Below the pieces are notes generated by a model, which was not told the origin of the DNA, did no database searches, and was given only the letters and a program-made list of their open reading frames with translations. Below are positions 1-9,328 of a stretch of DNA of 64,000 bases, piece after piece (position 1 is the first letter of the stretch; every line of letters begins with the position of its first letter). Position numbers and translations under genes: made by a program. This stretch comes from Candidatus Aminicenantales bacterium (GTDB lineage Bacteria; Acidobacteriota; Aminicenantia; Aminicenantales; UBA4085). The stretch spans positions 201,462 through 265,461 of the forward strand of contig JBEKTZ010000004.1 of the NCBI GenBank assembly GCA_049515535.1. The letters are read 5' to 3'.

Positions 1-1726
1 TAAAAGATTTATGGGCCGCCGTTACCAGGAGGTTCCGGGCGAAATCAAACAGGTTCCCTTCAAGGTCACGGAAGCGTCGAACGGTGATGTCCGGGTCGAA
101 GCGCTTAACAAGAAATACTCTCCGCCGGAAATTTCAGCTTTGATCCTTCAAAAACTGAAAAAGGCGGCAGAGGATTATTTGGGGGAGAAAATTGAGAAGG
201 CCGTCATTACCGTCCCCGCGTATTTCAACGACAGCCAAAGGAAAGCGACAAAAGACGCCGGCACGATCGCCGGCTTGGAAGTTGTCCGCATCATCAACGA
301 ACCCACTGCGGCCGCATTGGCCTACGGGATGGACAAAAAGAAGGACGAGACGATTGCCGTCTACGATTTTGGCGGCGGGACATTCGATATTTCCATCCTC
401 GAAGTCGGAGAAGGCATCGTCGAGGTAAAGTCCACGAACGGAGACACCCACCTGGGTGGGGACGATATCGACCAGCGCGTTCAGGACTGGATCGTTGCTG
501 AATTCAAGAAAGACGCGGGCATCGACTTGACCAAGGACAAGATGGCCATTCAAAGACTCAAAGAGGCGGCGGAAAAGGCCAAGATCGAACTCTCGACGAC
601 CATGGAGAGTGAGATCAATCTGCCGTTCATCACGGCCGACGCTTCGGGGCCGAAACACCTCTTGATGAAAATGACCCGGGCTAAACTTGAGCAGCTCGTG
701 GAAGATATCATCCAGAAATCCGTAGCTCCCGTCAAACAGGCCTTGACCGACGCCAACCTCAAATCGTCCGATATCGACGAGGTCGTTCTCGTCGGCGGTC
801 AGACCCGCATGCCGAGGATCCAGCAGCTCGTTCACGATCTTTTCAGCAGAGAGCCCCATAAGGGCGTCAACCCGGACGAAGTCGTGGCTGTGGGCGCGGC
901 CATTCAAGGCGCCGTCCTATCGGGATCGGTTAAGGATGTCCTTCTTCTCGACGTCACGCCGCTGACATTGGGTATCGAAACCCTCGGCGGGGTCTTCACG
1001 AAAATGATCGTCCGCAATACGACGATTCCGACCAAGAAGACCGAGGTCTTTTCAACCGCGTCCGACAACCAGCCGAGCGTTGAAATCCATGTTCTTCAGG
1101 GCGAACGGGAAATGGCCTCCGCCAACCGGACACTGGGACGGTTTCACCTCGACGGCATCCCGCCCGCGCCCCGCGGCGTGCCCAAAATCGAGGTGATGTT
1201 CGACATCGACGCGAACGGCATCCTTCATGTCCAGGCCAAAGACATGGGGACCGGCAAGCAACAGGCCATCACGATCACCGGCCACAGCGGTCTGGACGAA
1301 AAAGAAATCGATCGGATGGTGAAAGACGCGGAAGTTCATTCCTCCGAAGACAAGAAACGCCGGGAAATGATCGATGCCAAAAACCAGGCCGACCAGCTCG
1401 TCTATAGCCTCGAGAAGCTCCTCCGCGAGAACAAGGACAAGATTCCCGAAAGCGAGGCGGATCGAGTTCGGACCGAGATGGAAAACACCAAAAAAGCCAT
1501 CGAAAGCGAGAATGTCGATCGCATAAAGGAGGCCATGGAGAACTTGAACCGGGCTTCCCATAAGCTGACCGAGATGATGTATCAGCAGGCATCCCAGCAG
1601 CAAGCGCAGCCTGGAGGCGCCGACCAGCCCCACGCTTCTTCAAATTCGGACAAGGGCCAGGGCTCGGGCGGCGATGAAGGCGAAGTCATCGATGCCGAAG
1701 TCGTGGACGATGACAAAAAAAATTAA
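1..1726 (+). CDS. dnaK: Molecular chaperone DnaK (Hsp70), 5'-truncated by window edge (frame begins at nt 2)
   Basis: Translation has the Hsp70 hallmarks: [33 protein letters not shown] and [12 protein letters not shown]. The substrate-binding beta domain is followed by a full helical lid and an acidic C-terminus (EVVDDDKKN). The reading frame is open to nt 2, so the N-terminal ~70 aa lie upstream of the window. Confidence 0.95.
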
Positions 1727-1778
1727 GGCTACAAGAACCGCGCGTTCTTGGATATGATAAGGGCCGGGAGGGCCGGCG

Positions 1779-2900
1779 ATGAATATGGATTACTATCAGG
1801 TCCTGGGCGTTGGACGAAAAGCCTCGGTCGCCGAGATCAAGAAGGCTTATCGCAAGTTGGCCCGCAAATACCACCCCGATCTCAATCCCCATGATAAATC
1901 CTCCGAAGCCAAGTTCAAAGAGATTCAGGAAGCCTATTCCGTCCTTAGCGATCCAAAAAAGAAAACACAGTATGACCAGGTCGGGTTCGTCGGGGATCGG
2001 CCTCCCGGCGGCGGCCCGCAGGGACCGGCATCATCCGGGTTTGAAGGCTTCAATTTTTCGGATTTCGGAACGTCGTCCTTCCATGATTTTTTCGAGAGTA
2101 TTTTCAGCGGAGCGCCGGCCGGGCGAACGGCCGGGACGGCACAGAATCACCCCGAACGGGGAGAAGACCTCATTTATACGATGAACATCGGCTTTGAGGA
2201 CGCGATACGAGGTCTTCAGACGAAAATCAAATTGACCAGGATGGTGAATTGCGCGGGATGCGAAGGATCGGGCGCGTCACGCGGCGGCGGGGCTTCAACA
2301 TGTCCAACCTGCGGCGGCAGCGGCCGGACGAACATGCAGCGCGGGTTCATGAAGTTCTCCTCGGCCTGCCCGGCCTGCGGCGGAAGCGGAACCAAGCGCG
2401 GTAAAAGCTGTCCGGACTGCCGGGGCCAGGGCCTGGTCGAGCGGACGGATCTCATCAGCGTCAGGATTCCAGCCGGCGTAGACACCGGTTCCAAGGTCCG
2501 TATTCCGGAAAAAGGGAACGCCGGGCCGAACGGGGGTGGGGCCGGCGATCTTTATATCACAATCAAGGTGACGCCGCACCCGCTTTTTCGGAGAGAAGGC
2601 ACGAGTCTTTATGTCAAAGTGCCCATCACCGTTCCCGAAGCGACGCTGGGGGGCAAGATCGAGGTCCCCACGCTCGACGGCAGAACCGTGATCAAGATTC
2701 CGCCGGGAACGAAATCGGGCCAAAAGTTCCGGATCCGGGAGCGCGGCGCTCCGCTTCCCGGCGGGCGGGTGCGCGGTGATGAGTTCGTCGAGGTGACCAT
2801 CGTGCCTCCGGCATTCGGCGATGAGCGCGTCCGCGAGTTGATGAAGGAACTGGAAAAGATCGGCGGCGCGAACCCGAGAACCGACCTGGGAGCGAACTGA
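1779..2900 (+). CDS. dnaJ: Co-chaperone DnaJ (J domain, G/F region, CxxCxGxG zinc-finger repeats, C-terminal substrate-binding domain)
   Basis: YYQVLGV...[17 protein letters not shown] identifies the J domain with its HPD motif. Four CxxCxGxG repeats are present ([32 protein letters not shown]). It lies 52 nt downstream of dnaK. Confidence 0.93.
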
Positions 2901-2901
2901 G

Positions 2902-3306
2902 ATGAAAAGGAAATCGAAACCAAAGGAAAGCCGGGCGACCTACCATATCAGCAGCGTTTCCCAGCGCTATGATATCCATCCCCAAACGCTGCGTCTCTAC
3001 GAACGGGAAGGTCTCCTTCGGCCGTCGCGCAGCGAGGGCAACACCCGTCTTTATACGGATGAGGATCTCAAGCAATTGGAACTGATCCTGACGCTTGTGA
3101 GGGATCTGGGCGTAAATCTGGCCGGTGTCGAGGTCGTTCTTCATATGCGGACGAAAATCGAACAGATCGAGGCCGGAGTCAATGAGATGCTGGAATTTCT
3201 CAAAAAAGAATATTTCTCAGGCGGGGAAAACGAGTTCGAGAGGAGACAAACCGACCTGATGCCTCTCTCCCAGACTCGGATCATGAAGATCGAAAGGAAA
3301 GATTGA
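2902..3306 (+). CDS. hspR: MerR-family heat-shock transcriptional repressor (HspR-like)
   Basis: N-terminal MerR helix-turn-helix (YHISSVSQRYDIHPQTLRLYEREGLLRPSRSEGNTRLYTDEDL). The gene sits immediately after dnaK-dnaJ with a 1-nt gap, as in canonical dnaK-dnaJ-hspR operons. Confidence 0.75.
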   Translation: MKRKSKPKESRATYHISSVSQRYDIHPQTLRLYEREGLLRPSRSEGNTRLYTDEDLKQLELILTLVRDLGVNLAGVEVVLHMRTKIEQIEAGVNEMLEFLKKEYFSGGENEFERRQTDLMPLSQTRIMKIERKD

Positions 3307-3321
3307 GGGGCGTCGTCGAAT

Positions 3322-3338
3322 CCGCCCCCCAGGGGCGG
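3322..3338 (+). terminator. GC-rich hairpin (CCGCCCC-CCA-GGGGCGG) just after the hspR stop; no T-run follows
   Basis: 7-bp perfect GC stem with a 3-nt loop, read directly from the sequence. It could be an operon-end hairpin. The missing U-tract makes intrinsic-terminator function uncertain. Confidence 0.3.
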
Positions 3339-3371
3339 GTAAGGGCGGCGGCCGCCAGGCTTTTGAACTGA

Positions 3372-3596
3372 AGCATCAAACGCCAGATCCGGGATATTCA
3401 CGAGGCATTGGATGAAAAGGAAGTTTTTGTGTTAAAATGGCGGTTCGGATTGGATGACGATCAGCCCCTGACGCTCCGGGAGATCGGCGACAAGCTCCAC
3501 CTGACCAGGGAAGGCATCCGCCAGATCGAGCGGAAAGCGATGTACAAGCTGTCCCGGTCGAGAAAGCTTAGTCCATGGCGAGGAAATTTGAACTGA
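3372..3596 (+). CDS. Orphan ORF encoding only a sigma-70 region 4 (region 4.2 HTH) segment; possible sigma-factor remnant or small stand-alone region-4 protein
   Basis: The open frame SIKRQIRDIHEALDEKEVFVLKWRFGLDDDQPLTLREIGDKLHLTREGIRQIERKAMYKLSRS aligns to the RpoD C-terminus (VLxxRFGL...TLEEIGxxFxVTRERIRQIEAKALRKL). An in-frame stop lies at 3369-3371 and hspR ends at 3306. No sigma regions 1-3 can therefore be encoded upstream. The listed ORF uses a TTG start at 3408. Confidence 0.35.
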   Translation, partial: SIKRQIRDIHEALDEKEVFVLKWRFGLDDDQPLTLREIGDKLHLTREGIRQIERKAMYKLSRSRKLSPWRGNLN

Positions 3597-4357
3597 TGGC
3601 CGAGATAATTTGCTCCGCTTGCCAGGATACCGGCTGGGTCCTCGATGACGCGCAGGGCCACTCTCTGGCCAGACGATGTTCCTGCTTCATCGCCAAACAA
3701 GGCCGGATCCTGATTGCGAAGGCGAACATCCCAAAGCGCTATGAACGTTGCACGTTCGCCAATTTCGAGATCCACGATGAGACGCAGAGGGACGCCCTCA
3801 AAATATCCAAGAAAATGATCGAAAATTATCCCGTTCAGGAAATCGGGCTTCTTTTCATTGGTCCGCCGGGCGTCGGGAAAACGCATTTGGCCGTGGCCAT
3901 CCTGAATGAACTGATGAGCCGGAAAAACGCGGGCTGCGTGTTTTACGATTTCCGCGATCTCATCCGGGACATCCAAAGCACGTTCACCCCGGATTCGGTC
4001 CTCTCGGAATCCGATATCCTGGCGCCCGTATTCGAGAGCCAAGTGCTCGTCCTGGACGAATTAGGCGCGAAGAGGTCGTCGAGCTGGGTCGAAGAAACGA
4101 TATTTTATATCATCAACCACCGTTACAATCAAAAGAAAATGACGATCTTCACGTCGAATTTTCTCGATACGAGCGATGAAGAAGATCCGCGGCAGACGAT
4201 GTTCAAGAAGACCGATATCAACAAAAAGGGAGACGACTCGCTCGTCGACCGGATCGGCTACAGATTGAGATCCCGGCTTTATGAAATGTGCAAAGTCGTG
4301 GAAATTTCCGGAAAAGATTACCGCAAGATCGCCAAACAGGCCAGCTATCGGTTCTGA
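3575..4357 (+). CDS. DnaC/DnaI/IstB-like AAA+ ATPase (putative helicase loader) with N-terminal Cys cluster
   Basis: Walker A (GPPGVGKTHLAVAI) and Walker B (VLVLDELG) motifs are present, with the layout of DnaC-family loaders. An N-terminal CSACQDTGW...CSC cysteine cluster precedes them. The start overlaps the tail of the sigma-fragment ORF. Confidence 0.6.
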   Translation: MARKFELMAEIICSACQDTGWVLDDAQGHSLARRCSCFIAKQGRILIAKANIPKRYERCTFANFEIHDETQRDALKISKKMIENYPVQEIGLLFIGPPGVGKTHLAVAILNELMSRKNAGCVFYDFRDLIRDIQSTFTPDSVLSESDILAPVFESQVLVLDELGAKRSSSWVEETIFYIINHRYNQKKMTIFTSNFLDTSDEEDPRQTMFKKTDINKKGDDSLVDRIGYRLRSRLYEMCKVVEISGKDYRKIAKQASYRF

Positions 4358-6120
4358 TGCAACCGGGCGGCCAACTTTTCGCAGTTTTGCCGGATTTCAT
4401 AGGGGACGCGGCGGCCGAATGTGTCCAAGAAGGCCTTGATGTCCTTGATCTCATCTCGCCATTCCGCGGGATTGACCTCGAATAGTTTTTCCATGTCCCT
4501 GTGGGAGGTCTTCAATCCGTCCATCGCGAAGTCATTGATGTTCGGCACGAGCCCGATGGGCGTTTCCTTCGCTCCGACCCGGCCGTTCACCCGGTCGACG
4601 ATCCATTTGAGAACGCGCGCGTTGTCGCCGAAGCCCGGCCATAGGAATTTGCCGTTCTCGTCCACGCGGAACCAATTGACCGAGTAGATCTTTGGAGGCT
4701 TGGTGATGAAACCGCCCATGTTGATCCAGTGGCGGAAATAGTCGCCCATGTTATAGCCGCAGAAGGGAAGCATGGCGAAGGGGTCGCGGCGAAGCACGCC
4801 GACCTGGCCGGCCGCCGCGGCCGTCGTTTCCGATCCGGTCCTCGCGCCCATAAAAACGCCGTGAGCCCAATCGAAAGCTTCGGTCACGAGCGGAATCACG
4901 CGCGAGCGGCGGCCACCCAGCAGAATCGCCGAAATCGGAACGCCCTGCGGGTTGTCGAATTGCGGGGAGAGCGTCGGGCAGTTGTAAAGCGAAACCGTGA
5001 AGCGCGAATTGGGGTGGGCGGCTTTAGTCCCCTTGGCCGGATCCCAGGGCTTTCCCTGCCAGTCCAGCATGTTTTTCGGCGGGCCTTCCAGCCCTTCCCA
5101 CCACGGTTCGTTCGTATCGACGTCGAGGCCGACGTTGGTGAAAAGCGTCGGATAAAAATTCGAAGCTTTGAGAGTCCGCATCATATTGGGGTTCGTTTTC
5201 ATCGAGGTCCCCGGCGCGACGCCGAAGAATCCCGCCTCTGGGTTGATGGCCCACAGCCGGCCGTCCGGGCCGATGTTCATCCAAGCGATGTCGTCGCCGA
5301 TCGTCGTGATCTTATATTCGGGCAAAGCGGATTCCATCATCGCCAGATTCGTTTTCCCGCAGGCCGAAGGCATGGCCGCCGTCACGTAGGTCACGCTGCC
5401 TTTCATGTCCTCGATGCCGATGATGACCATGTGTTCGGCGAGCCACATCTGCCTCAGCCCGAGATACGAGGCGATGCGGAGCGAAAAGCATTTTTTCCCG
5501 AGCAGGGCGTTGCCGCCGTAGCCGGAGCCGATGCTCCAGACCAGGCTGTCCTGAGGGAAGTGCATGATGAAACGCCGGTTCGGATCGAAATCTCCGACCG
5601 AATGGATGCCCTTGACGAAATTTTCGGAATTGCCGATCTTTCTGATCGTATGCGGGCCCATCCGGGTCATGATCCTCATGCTGACGGCGACATAGGAGAT
5701 GTCGGTGATCTGGATGCAGGGCCTAGCGTAAGGCGAATCGGGATGGCCCATCATGTAGGGCAGGACATACATCGTCCGGCCCCGCATGGCGCCTTGGGAC
5801 AGCCCGATCAACTTTTTCTTGGCCTCGGCCGGGTCCATCCAATTGTTGTTCGGTCCCGACTGATCTTTTTCAGGATGGCAGACGAAGGTCAAGTGCTCGG
5901 TCCGCGCTACGTCCGTGGGATGGCTGCGATGGAGATAAGCCTTAGGCCACGTTCTGTGATTGAGTTCGCTGAAGATGGGGTTAGCGCCGATTTTCTCTTC
6001 GCGCATCCCTTTGTCGATGAGCCGGCGGGCCTCGCCCTCCGATCCATCGCACCAATAGATCTCTTTCGGTTGGAAAAGTCGGGCTTGTTCTTCGACCCAT
6101 CGTTCAAGCGGTGTGGCCAT
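4345..6120 (-). CDS. pckG: Phosphoenolpyruvate carboxykinase (GTP)
   Basis: MATPLERWVEEQARLFQPKEIYWCDGSEGE is the typical N-terminus of GTP-PEPCK. The P-loop region AMPSACGKTNLAMM is present. The listed ORF extends 42 codons further upstream, which I treat as non-coding leader. Confidence 0.88.
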   Translation of the reverse strand: MATPLERWVEEQARLFQPKEIYWCDGSEGEARRLIDKGMREEKIGANPIFSELNHRTWPKAYLHRSHPTDVARTEHLTFVCHPEKDQSGPNNNWMDPAEAKKKLIGLSQGAMRGRTMYVLPYMMGHPDSPYARPCIQITDISYVAVSMRIMTRMGPHTIRKIGNSENFVKGIHSVGDFDPNRRFIMHFPQDSLVWSIGSGYGGNALLGKKCFSLRIASYLGLRQMWLAEHMVIIGIEDMKGSVTYVTAAMPSACGKTNLAMMESALPEYKITTIGDDIAWMNIGPDGRLWAINPEAGFFGVAPGTSMKTNPNMMRTLKASNFYPTLFTNVGLDVDTNEPWWEGLEGPPKNMLDWQGKPWDPAKGTKAAHPNSRFTVSLYNCPTLSPQFDNPQGVPISAILLGGRRSRVIPLVTEAFDWAHGVFMGARTGSETTAAAAGQVGVLRRDPFAMLPFCGYNMGDYFRHWINMGGFITKPPKIYSVNWFRVDENGKFLWPGFGDNARVLKWIVDRVNGRVGAKETPIGLVPNINDFAMDGLKTSHRDMEKLFEVNPAEWRDEIKDIKAFLDTFGRRVPYEIRQNCEKLAARLHQNR

Positions 6121-6298
6121 GGCGCTTCCTTTCTCGATAGAAACCAAAAAATAACACAGGCGAAGGGATCTTGTCAAAATCCTCGGCCGGAAAAATCGGC
6201 TCGGCGGCACCGGCCGCGTCCGAATCGACGCGGACAGTTCCGTCATTCGATTTTAAATTGAATTTTGAATCCGTTTATGCTAATTTAGCCGGGACTGC

Positions 6299-6374
6299 TC
6301 CCCGGTAGCTCAATAGGCAGAGCGGTTGGCTGTTAACCAATAGGTTGGAGGTTCGAGTCCTTCCCGGGGAGCCA
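6299..6374 (+). tRNA. tRNA-Asn (anticodon GTT)
   Basis: Cloverleaf read by hand. Acceptor stem TCCCCGG/CCGGGGA, D stem GCTC/GAGC, anticodon stem GTTGG/CCAAT, loop CTGTTAA, T stem GGAGG/CCTTC with TTCGAGT loop. CCA is encoded and a T-run follows. Confidence 0.85.
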
Positions 6375-6399
6375 TTTTTTTTCGTGCCGCCCGTCATCC

Positions 6400-7137
6400 C
6401 TATTTCATGTTCCGGACGCGGACGTCGATCCCCTTTTGGTCTTTCAGGAGTTCGACCAACCTGGAAACGTCCGTATCGCCATAATGATAGGGATACAGGA
6501 CTTTAGGCTGGATGACCCTTGCGGCTTCAGCCGTCATCTCGGGCGACATCGTATAGGGGAGATTCATCGGCAGAAAAGCGATGTCGATCGTTCCGAGACG
6601 TTTCATTTCCGGGATGTTCTCCGTGTCGCCCGCGACATAGACGCGCTTATCGGCGAACGTGAGGACATATCCGTTGCCGTCTCCTTTGGGATGGAACGGG
6701 TTTCCCGGGCTGCGGACGCCGACGATATTATAGGCCGGAACGGCTTCGATCTTGATCCCCTGACAGGTCCGGCTGTCGCCGTTTTTCATGATGACGGCGT
6801 TCGGGAGCTTTTCCGCGCATTTTTGGGTGGCGAGAACTTCGGTCGTGGGTTTTGTCAGCTTTCCGATAAGGGCCGGATCCAGGTGATCCCCATGCTCGTG
6901 AGTGACCAGGATGATGTCCGCCTTGGCCAGCGGGCCGTAATCCCCGTAACGGCTTACCGGATCGATGTGAAGGATCTTGCCGTTGAACGAGATCATCAGC
7001 GAACCGTGTCCGATGAAGGTCATTTTCAGGTCGCCCTGAGTTGTTTTGAAGAGATCTTCTTCAAAGGCCGAAAGCTTCGTAGCCAGCAACAAAATCCCCA
7101 TCATCAGGGCTCCCGGTAATAAAGACCATTTAAACAT
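6400..7137 (-). CDS. Secreted MBL-fold metallo-hydrolase
   Basis: THEHGDH (HxHxDH) metal-binding motif. N-terminal signal peptide MFKWSLLPGALMMGILLLATKLSA. Start trimmed to the Met preceding the signal peptide. Confidence 0.75.
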   Translation of the reverse strand: MFKWSLLPGALMMGILLLATKLSAFEEDLFKTTQGDLKMTFIGHGSLMISFNGKILHIDPVSRYGDYGPLAKADIILVTHEHGDHLDPALIGKLTKPTTEVLATQKCAEKLPNAVIMKNGDSRTCQGIKIEAVPAYNIVGVRSPGNPFHPKGDGNGYVLTFADKRVYVAGDTENIPEMKRLGTIDIAFLPMNLPYTMSPEMTAEAARVIQPKVLYPYHYGDTDVSRLVELLKDQKGIDVRVRNMK

Positions 7138-7365
7138 GAAAACCTCCTTGGGCGCCGGGGACTTTTTTATGCGATGTCCGGCGACCGCCATGCCCTTCGC
7201 CCTTCTTCCGGCGGGGGAGAGGGTGATTTTATGACATCGTCATGATCTTACGGGAATGAAACCCATGGACCTTGGCCTGGGCGCGATCATGTTGATAAGC
7301 ATATTATAGCGAAGAAGCGTTCTCTTGACAAACCGGATTCCTCTTGTATCCGCATCGACAGCGAG

Positions 7366-8148
7366 CTATTTCGAAGAAAGGGCAGCGGATGTGTTCGGAG
7401 GGTCCGCTATCACCGCCGTTGGGGCCGGGTTAAAGGGATTGATCCGGGCGGCCAGCGAAAACAAGAATGGATAGCTTTCCTTGAGGTGCATGGCATAGGC
7501 GAGCCATTCGCTCGCGATCTTGGAATAAGCCCGCTGGACGTCGCCCGCCAAGTGGAGGTAATCCGCCTCGGGCAGGCCTTCAAGGTTTCCCTCGCGCATT
7601 TCGAGCTCATCCATGATATGGAAAACGGCCCACAGAAGATCGGTGAATTGGTCGTGTTCGAGGAGGTTTGGATTTTCGAGCAGCCGGAGGAGGAAGGTAC
7701 GGTGACCGCAGAAAAGCTCCCTGAGGTCGCGGAGAGTGGACGGCGCGACATGGACCTTGTAAGAAAAGCTTTTCGCCGCTTCTCCGGCTTTCGAAAAGTC
7801 CTTTTTCTGCCATGAGCCGCCGAAGACGAGCAAGGGCGCCAGTTGAGCCGAATTCTCCACGAACACCGGAAAGCTTTTCAGGATTTTCAGCCCCACTTCA
7901 TTAAAAAACGTCCCGATGACCATATTCATCTTCTTCATGAGAGTCTGTTTTTCGCGGCGGGATAGGACTTCCTCGACGATGATGATGACCACGAGAATAT
8001 AAATGAAAAGGAACGCAACGTTGTCGAACAGACCGGCCAACAATTTCGCCGGGTTGCCAAAAATGAAATAGTCCAAAGCGTAGACGACGAGGGAAGCTCC
8101 GATCAAGACCACTGACATGGCCACGCGCCAACGGCCGGCATTTTTCAT
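7366..8148 (-). CDS. Hypothetical membrane protein (2 N-terminal TM helices plus soluble domain)
   Basis: Long ORF with hydrophobic N-terminal segments. No motif I can assign to a known family. Confidence 0.5.
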   Translation of the reverse strand: MKNAGRWRVAMSVVLIGASLVVYALDYFIFGNPAKLLAGLFDNVAFLFIYILVVIIIVEEVLSRREKQTLMKKMNMVIGTFFNEVGLKILKSFPVFVENSAQLAPLLVFGGSWQKKDFSKAGEAAKSFSYKVHVAPSTLRDLRELFCGHRTFLLRLLENPNLLEHDQFTDLLWAVFHIMDELEMREGNLEGLPEADYLHLAGDVQRAYSKIASEWLAYAMHLKESYPFLFSLAARINPFNPAPTAVIADPPNTSAALSSK

Positions 8149-8197
8149 CTTGTCCTACCTCCTTATCGGGAAACCGGACCTCGGCGCGGCCGGGGTA

Positions 8198-9328
8198 TCA
8201 ACGAGGGGATATCCGTCTCGGGCAATCGGGGAGCGATAGGCTTTCCATGGGCCCCCGGCCATCGGTGACCGCGCATTCCTCGGGCCGGCAGCATGTCTCG
8301 CAGGTCCGTTTGAAGCCTCGATAACCCGTGAGGTCGACATGCGGGGCAAAAAAGCCGGGTTTTACGGGCTCTTTTTTCATGAGATCGGTGCTGAGATATT
8401 TCTTGTTGTCATCGGAGAATATCGTCACGACGACGGCATCCTTGCCGAGCTCATTTTGGACCATGAGGGCCCCCAGGAAGTTCGCGCCCGAGGATATGCC
8501 GACGGCGATCCCGAGCTCGGAAGCCAGTTTTTGGGCCATGATGATCGCATCGCCGTCGTCCACGGCGACGACCTTGTCGAGCCTGTCCAACTTGACGATA
8601 GGAGGGATGAACTCGTCGGAAATCCCCTGGATACGGTGTTTACCGACCTTGTGACCGGTGGACATTGTCGGCGAATTGGAGGGCTCTAAAGGATAGAGCT
8701 TGATTCGCGGATTCTTCTCGCGAAGGAAGCGCCCGGTGCCCATGATCGTCCCGCCCGTGCCCACGCCGGCGATAAAGGCGCCGGGCCTCAAGCCGTGGAA
8801 ATTGAGCTGCCACCAGATCTCAGGACCGGTGGTCAGATAGTGAGCTTCGACATTGTGCTCATTGGAGAACTGGCGAGGAAGAAACGAGCCGGGCGTGCGG
8901 GCTGCCAACTCTTCGGAAAGGCGGATGCTTCCGAGGAACCCGCCTTCCTCGGCGCTGACGAGATGGATCATCGCGCCCAGGCTCCGGATCAGGTTGATCC
9001 GCTCGAAACTCATCCAGTTGGGCATGAAGATGGTGATGGGATGTCCGAGGGCGCGGCCGATGGCCGAAAAGGCGATTCCCGTATTTCCGCTCGTCGCTTC
9101 TATGATCAGCCCTCCTGGAACAAGGGTTCCCGTCTCATAGGCTCTCTTGAGGATATGAAAGGCCATCCGGTCCTTGATGCTGCCAGTCATGTTCAAGTTT
9201 TCGGCCTTGGCGTAGATGATCCGTTTCTCGTCCCGGTAAGAAAATTCGATGGCCAGGAGGGGAGTGTTCCCGATCAGACTGGACAACTCGCGAATCCGGC
9301 GGTGTTGGTCTTCTGTGATGACGATCAT
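8198..9328 (-). CDS. cysK: Cysteine synthase / O-acetylserine sulfhydrylase-like PLP enzyme with ~55-aa Cys-rich C-terminal extension
   Basis: PLP-lysine region [21 protein letters not shown] and [10 protein letters not shown] are typical CysK/CysM motifs. The C-terminal tail [10 protein letters not shown]...DC is not part of canonical CysK. Start trimmed to MIVITEDQH. Confidence 0.8.

Follow-up and report, generated by a model that had tools for sequence, protein, structure and literature searches.

The 74-codon open frame between hspR and a dnaC-like gene in a Candidatus Aminicenantales bacterium is very probably a non-functional pseudogene fragment of an RpoD/RpoS-like sigma factor gene; comparison with related genomes points to a gene of ~280 aa with regions 1.2, 2, 3 and 4. 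We established the orthology of the frame to that gene, the structure of the deletions that shortened it and the loss of purifying selection on what is left. The frame was studied within a stretch of 64,000 nucleotides analysed as a whole (the window), to which all unlabelled positions refer. The features are as follows.

11-1726, + strand: dnaK
1779-2900, + strand: dnaJ
2902-3306, + strand: hspR, MerR-family heat-shock repressor, upstream neighbour of the frame (NCBIfam HspR, Pfam MerR_1)
3303-3371, + strand: scrap ORF of 22 codons opening with a TTG that overlaps the hspR stop; translation LRGVVESAPQGRVRAAAARLLN, then a stop
3308-3353, + strand: predicted GC-rich compound hairpin followed by CUUUUG, formed by a region-2.2 scrap and filler (~45 nt), from an RNA fold of 3296-3412
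3369-3371, + strand: in-frame TGA directly before the region-4 frame, dividing it from the 22-codon scrap ORF (translation of 3300-3596)
3372-3596, + strand: sigma-gene 3′ remnant, 74 codons and a stop, covering the end of region 3.2, region 4.1 and region 4.2
3408-3410, + strand: TTG, first in-frame start codon (ORF list)
3549-3596, + strand: last ~16 codons of the remnant, with GAGGAAA at 3580-3586 and the overlapping stop/start TGATG at 3594-3598
3596-4357, + strand: DnaC/DnaI/IstB-like AAA+ ATPase gene, downstream neighbour (Pfam IstB_IS21, E = 2e-17; NCBIfam PRK08116, DnaI and DnaC models)
4345-6246, − strand: GTP-dependent PEPCK gene, convergent

The frame runs from 3372 to 3593 with its stop at 3594-3596, and its translation is SIKRQIRDIHEALDEKEVFVLKWRFGLDDDQPLTLREIGDKLHLTREGIRQIERKAMYKLSRSRKLSPWRGNLN followed by that stop. 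A match to Pfam Sigma70_r4 (PF04545) over profile positions 4-48 of 50, with E = 6.2e-13 and 48.5 bits against a cut-off of 24.1, places it in this domain family with a complete region-4 helix-turn-helix. The C-terminus of the NCBIfam RpoD models also matches the frame (E ~ 1e-16), and residues 541-601 of E. coli sigma-70 align to it without a gap. A preliminary description made from the sequence had recognized a sigma-70 region 4 between hspR and a DnaC-like ATPase, and the profile search bears this out at a significant score. Sigma70_r4 is the sole domain found by a Pfam scan of the window frame. Region 2, on which core binding, −10 recognition and melting by a functional sigma-70 factor depend, is missing from the remnant; lacking regions 1.2-3, the window copy would be unable to bind core polymerase or the −10 element. 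When the remnant was compared with the whole window by tblastn and blastn for a source copy, a duplicate or another sigma gene, nothing better than E = 0.036 was obtained.

The frame appears to have no convincing start site, its candidates being a TTG with a badly placed GAGG and internal codons only. The GAGG lies just 2 nt upstream of the TTG at 3408, too close to be well spaced as a ribosome-binding site. At GTG 3429 an AAGGA is found upstream at good spacing, and some translation from that codon is conceivable. JGI gene callers predict a 62-aa protein at the frame and name it a primary sigma factor. Several details of the preliminary description need to be adjusted: the stop that it placed three codons upstream is the TGA immediately before codon 3372, and hspR ends 65 nt, not 60 nt, before the frame. 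The listed TTG start was correct, as was the overlap of the tail with the next gene, which amounts to 22 nt if the dnaC-like gene begins at ATG 3575 and to 1 nt (TGATG) if it begins at ATG 3596. Selenocysteine insertion or other stop recoding at TGA 3369 was also considered and was rejected by inference, TGA being the ordinary stop of hspR and, in nearly all loci, of the sigma gene.

Alignment with orthologues backs the dnaC-like start at 3596. The alternative at 3575 is new in the window lineage and adds 7 residues; substitutions in the decaying sigma tail created this ATG, which shares the dnaC-like reading frame and precedes the conserved start by 7 codons. Among the sibling contigs, gene calls use one start or the other, with products of 260 or 253 aa. 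The dnaC-like gene (+) and the PEPCK gene (−) meet tail to tail and share 13 nt at their 3′ ends (4345-4357), with a similar convergent arrangement in relatives, and a tRNA-Asn gene (GTT) lies at 6299-6374 (+), downstream of the PEPCK region. An Rfam scan of 1-9000 found tRNA only. On the upstream side, the hspR product matches NCBIfam HspR with E = 8e-27 but below the curated cut-off (93 versus 105 bits). The hairpin that follows hspR is present in both the minimum free energy and the centroid structures, with an overall z-score of −0.99, that is, not significantly more stable than shuffled sequence. A promoter and terminator scan of 2800-4500 returned no promoter-like sites and called nothing in 3300-3600, the hairpin included. 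Weak termination behind hspR is a possible role for this hairpin, which could have arisen recently as a terminator-like structure or as a side effect of the deletion.

Intact orthologues and the deletions behind the remnant

In order to examine the locus in relatives, loci were anchored on the DnaC-like protein, with the presence of a sigma gene playing no part in their selection. One set held 80 loci from GTDB contigs, one genome per species and nearly all Candidatus Aminicenantes, and a second set held 80 further loci from metagenomes. Using the 280-aa sigma of locus L002 in tblastn searches, we found a full-length collinear sigma gene between hspR and the dnaC-like gene in 73 GTDB-species loci and in 65 of the 67 evaluable metagenome loci. 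In L002 itself the gene is also of full length at this locus but carries one in-frame stop. Overall, a full-length 280-aa sigma is encoded here in ~137 of 147 related Aminicenantes loci, in the order dnaK-dnaJ-hspR-sigma-dnaC-like. The cluster as such is conserved (L010-L169, ~147 loci; 11-4357 in the window), with PEPCK convergent downstream.

The intact protein contains Sigma70_r1_2, r2, r3 and r4 domains (for example in L011, 4159-4998). Its best NCBIfam models are RpoD, RpoS and SigB, all at scores under the curated equivalog cut-offs; consequently, it cannot be assigned to RpoD, RpoS or RpoH proper. Its domain content indicates an RpoD-like sigma without region 1.1. To our knowledge, a sigma gene inside a dnaK-dnaJ-hspR cluster is unusual. 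The position of a primary-like sigma gene directly behind a heat-shock repressor gene suggests a sigma factor under heat-shock control; a literature search for a link between sigma factors and HspR in Aminicenantes found nothing relevant.

The window frame is orthologous to residues 207-280 of this protein. It holds the same position between hspR and the dnaC-like gene, shares the overlapping stop/start including the TGATG junction, and has its closest similarity to these genes. With the full-length L002 sigma as query, the tblastn match in the window covers residues 207-280 only, at 72% identity, and DNA homology of the window to the sigma genes of L010 and L011 begins at ~3375.

The closest relative of the window locus is L001, whose DnaC-like protein is 96% identical and whose flanking genes are ~97% identical in DNA. 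In L001 the sigma matches consist of residues 80-121 (regions 2.2-2.4, KFISYAVWWIRQ) and 206-280. The two loci have a common junction at which the hspR stop is followed by TTG AGG GGC GTC GTC GAA TCC GC, and the GVVESA encoded there corresponds to the G(L/V)(L/I)E(A/S)A of region 2.2. Past this junction L001 runs on into region 2.3/2.4. In the window, the GVVESA codons (3309-3326, 18 nt), corresponding to residues ~80-85 of the intact sigma, stand directly after the hspR stop, and the remainder of the scrap ORF is GC-rich filler that is absent from L001. Codons 1-206 of the sigma gene are gone except for this scrap, and with them the native start. The preliminary description was therefore right that regions 1-3 are almost wholly missing upstream, but not entirely, as the region-2.2 scrap is left.

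By parsimony, the start codon and the first ~78 codons would have been lost in an ancestor shared by the window organism and L001, an event that would have set the region-2.2 scrap directly against the hspR stop. Separate internal losses would then have removed ~codons 122-209 in L001 and ~codons 86-206 in the window lineage, the latter also acquiring a GC-rich filler of ~45 nt that contains an in-frame TGA. The surviving region-4 codons would subsequently have taken substitutions at about the neutral rate. The frame would still be open only because little time has elapsed, there being ~7% nucleotide differences and no indels. No further member of the window/L001 clade was found by a protein-anchored metagenome scan, which gave no relative closer than 81% and from which L151 and the 65 intact metagenome loci came, and an exact-DNA search of metagenome_contigs for the hspR/remnant junction gave 0 matches, that collection evidently lacking the window organism's samples.

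Loss of or damage to the hspR-linked sigma gene has occurred in at least four independent events, and the nearest neighbour of every decayed locus still has the gene intact. In L061 (3634-3924) the native ATG and 18 N-terminal codons are fused in frame to region 4. The same junction occurs in L151 (601-891), which comes from a different source and is 97.6% identical to L061 in DNA. In L151 a CAG>TAG change inside the recognition helix (TRERIR*IE), aligned with Q589 of sigma-70, ends the frame 29 codons early. In-frame deletions of region 2 and region 3.2 are present in L024 (4477-4995), and in L142 the Glu codon of LIDEGN is replaced by an internal stop. In L053 (4920-5000) all but a scrap and the last ~8 codons are lost, and the dnaC-like gene is intact. 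The recurrence of these independent losses suggests that some lineages can do without the sigma factor. In every case open to testing, the region-4-only remnants of the hspR-linked sigma appear from their sequences to be pseudogenes.

Substitutions in the remnant

Over 70 comparable codons, the remnants of the window and L001 differ by 12.8 nonsynonymous and 1.2 synonymous changes (dN 0.084, dS 0.025, omega 3.4). For dnaJ, hspR, the dnaC-like gene and PEPCK the same pair of loci gave 33 nonsynonymous and 70 synonymous changes in total, with dN of 0.011-0.015, dS of 0.07-0.125 and omega of 0.12-0.19. The dN of the remnant is close to the dS of the flanking genes. The 13:1 ratio of the remnant differs from the flanking 33:70 (Fisher's test, p = 1.6e-5) and does not depart significantly from neutrality (p = 0.2). 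In 364 pairwise comparisons of intact orthologues, the omega of region 4 has a median of 0.18 and a maximum of 0.59, and dN reaches 0.08 or more only where dS is at least 0.26. Purifying selection has been lost from the remnant, and with a full-length gene at the same position in relatives this upholds the suggestion in the preliminary description of a decayed sigma-factor remnant. The parallel pair behaves in the same way, the L061/L151 remnant having an omega of 0.84 against 0.03-0.28 for its neighbours.

Conserved sites are among those affected. Conservation across the 73 intact orthologues reaches 95% or more at 32 positions of region 4; here, 59 of the intact loci show no deviation, 11 show one and 3 show two. 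The window deviates at five of the 32 (A18V, Q36R, R48G, L69W and Y72N), and so does L001 (Q5I, I38L, R50P, L69W and Y72N). Private changes at residues that are 100% invariant are R48G in the window (R586 of sigma-70) and R50P (R588) and I38L in L001. The −35 element is read by R584, E585, R588 and Q589 of sigma-70. In the window, the −35 recognition helix, which is otherwise invariant in this orthologue group, has changed from TRERIRQIE to TREGIRQIE, with loss of an Arg that is 100% conserved in the 73 intact orthologues.

Some observations count against a pseudogene. The 74-codon frame is uninterrupted. The GTG at 3429 is well spaced from its AAGGA, and the 62-aa JGI call has been named a primary sigma factor. 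In L001, L024 and L061 region 4 is kept in frame, which is a possible hint of selection for translation. Finally, an omega of 3.4 could in principle mean positive selection, but this value rests on about one synonymous change.

Other readings of the surviving frame

The extreme 3′ end of the remnant differs from the rest. Stop and start codons of the successive sigma and dnaC-like genes overlap in 68 of 74 loci (TGATG or TTGA), and a GAGG lies within the conserved Arg-Gly-Tyr (RGY) codons ~11 nt upstream of that start. The last codons are kept in every remnant, L053 included. The final 48 nt are identical between the window and L001 against an average divergence of 6.7% over the remnant, a result for which our own calculation gives a chance of ~0.04 and which is marginal. 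We infer that the 3′ ~45 nt are probably kept as the ribosome-binding and overlapping stop/start region of the dnaC-like gene. Constraint would then act on the extreme 3′ end only, and the rest of region 4 would merely not yet have been deleted or interrupted.

A stronger form of this idea holds that the remnant is still translated, from TTG 3408, from GTG 3429 or through reinitiation, and that ribosomes stopping at TGA 3594-3596 reinitiate at ATG 3596. The frequent stop/start overlap with its upstream GAGG and the identity of the last 48 nt would fit such coupling, as would the retention of region 4 in frame after deletions in L001, L024 and L061. However, the TGA at 3369-3371 severs the frame from the upstream ORFs and no well-placed start comes after it; in L151 a stop lies inside region 4; and in L053, where region 4 is almost entirely gone and no such ORF exists, the dnaC-like gene is still intact. 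The excess of junctions that keep region 4 in frame (~4 of 6 versus 1/3 expected) is not statistically significant. On balance, we consider coupling through the remnant unlikely. If it did occur, the act of translation would matter and the sequence of the peptide would be irrelevant, which is compatible with a pseudogene as far as the protein is concerned.

The preliminary description had also raised the possibility of an expressed region-4 peptide that competes with sigma factors. As a stand-alone protein, such a peptide would be a decoy or would compete for −35 elements, the beta-flap or regulators that bind region 4. The open frame with its complete helix-turn-helix would be expected of such a protein, the survival of region 4 in three independent deletion lineages could be read as retention for use, and the omega above 1 between the window and L001 as adaptive change. 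However, purifying selection is absent, nearly all substitutions change an amino acid, and dN matches the neutral rate seen in the flanking genes. Invariant residues have been hit, including arginines of the recognition helix (R48G in the window, R50P in L001), and the parallel remnant in L151 has a nonsense codon within that helix. The start context is poor, with a stop directly upstream. Moreover, a search of 5.8 billion database proteins returned only five relatives of the frame, all from the same locus family, and at least three of these five (P0003-P0005) are gene-caller or contig-end fragments of longer sigma genes. These findings make a functional region-4 protein very unlikely.

The source of P0005 is locus L005 (1-1300, an ENA contig), in which the sigma, dnaC-like and PEPCK genes alike carry multiple frameshifts, a pattern typical of an error-rich long-read assembly. 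Its 66-aa 'region-4 ORF' is therefore a calling artefact of an otherwise full-length gene.

It can also be imagined that the deletions that spared region 4 (window/L001, L061/L151 and L024) gave a transient benefit before decay set in, either through a dominant-negative peptide acting on the beta-flap or −35 element or through translation into the dnaC-like start; we regard this as hardly probable.

It is extremely improbable that the remnant is one half of a split, two-polypeptide sigma of the SigO-RsoA kind in B. subtilis, with its region-2 partner elsewhere. L002 seemed to offer a precedent, having a 166-aa ORF (regions 1.2-3) directly before a 113-aa region-4 ORF, but the split comes down to a single in-frame TAG (1514-1516) where the otherwise identical L003 has GAG (11-13). 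L003 is from another sample, and we rejected the two-ORF sigma of L002 as a nonsense variant confined to one contig or a sequencing error. No region-2 ORF occurs beside the remnant or anywhere in the 64-kb window, the upstream 22-codon ORF being scrap, and the remnant evolves neutrally.

As for an assembly or sequencing artefact hiding an intact sigma gene in the organism, to which we give practically no credence, the collapse of repeats in short-read metagenome assemblies offers a general reason only and nothing specific was found in its favour, while the region is not repeated inside the window, L001 has the same 5′ junction in a different run, and the same truncated layout and an identical 62-aa ORF recur in 14 contigs of up to 380 kb drawn from several JGI samples. 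The four sibling contigs that were retrieved (L006-L009) share this layout, with 14-25 SNPs elsewhere relative to the window (~0.3-0.4% DNA divergence), and on account of this divergence they are independent assemblies. The recurrence of one truncation in 14 separately assembled contigs excludes an error of assembly. The four retrieved contigs all differ from the window at 3595, the middle base of the remnant stop, and are otherwise identical to it over 2751-3594.

Relation to known systems

The remnant is an ordinary, textbook pseudogene of a familiar kind; it does not represent a novel regulator. In itself it is of little importance, with some practical value for annotation. The label "RNA polymerase primary sigma factor" that automated annotation gives it is wrong; it would be better to mark the 62-aa ORF as a pseudogene and to list the window organism among those without the stress-cluster sigma factor.

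The ancestral 280-aa gene, with regions 1.2, 2, 3 and 4, resembles the group 2-like sigma-70 factors, that is, the non-essential RpoD/RpoS/SigB-like ones, from which the window copy differs in being without regions 1.2-3. Small stand-alone helix-turn-helix proteins of the GerE/LuxR type and the YlxM/p13-like type are structurally related to sigma region 4. Their size (~60-75 aa) and region-4-like fold are similar to those of the remnant. They are, however, conserved families under purifying selection with starts of their own, whereas the window sequence is orthologous to part of an RpoD-type gene and evolves neutrally.

SigO-RsoA of Bacillus subtilis is listed as a two-subunit sigma factor (PMC10141391), and it likewise has sigma domains on separate small polypeptides. 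Its two parts are conserved, co-encoded and functional, whereas the window remnant has no partner ORF and no sequence constraint.

Like bacterial pseudogene fragments made by deletion, the remnant is shorter than the intact orthologues that occupy its syntenic position, shows nested deletions specific to each lineage, has a dN/dS relaxed to about 1 and is matched by a parallel copy with a nonsense mutation. There is no essential difference from such fragments; the last ~45 nt of the remnant probably still serve the downstream gene.
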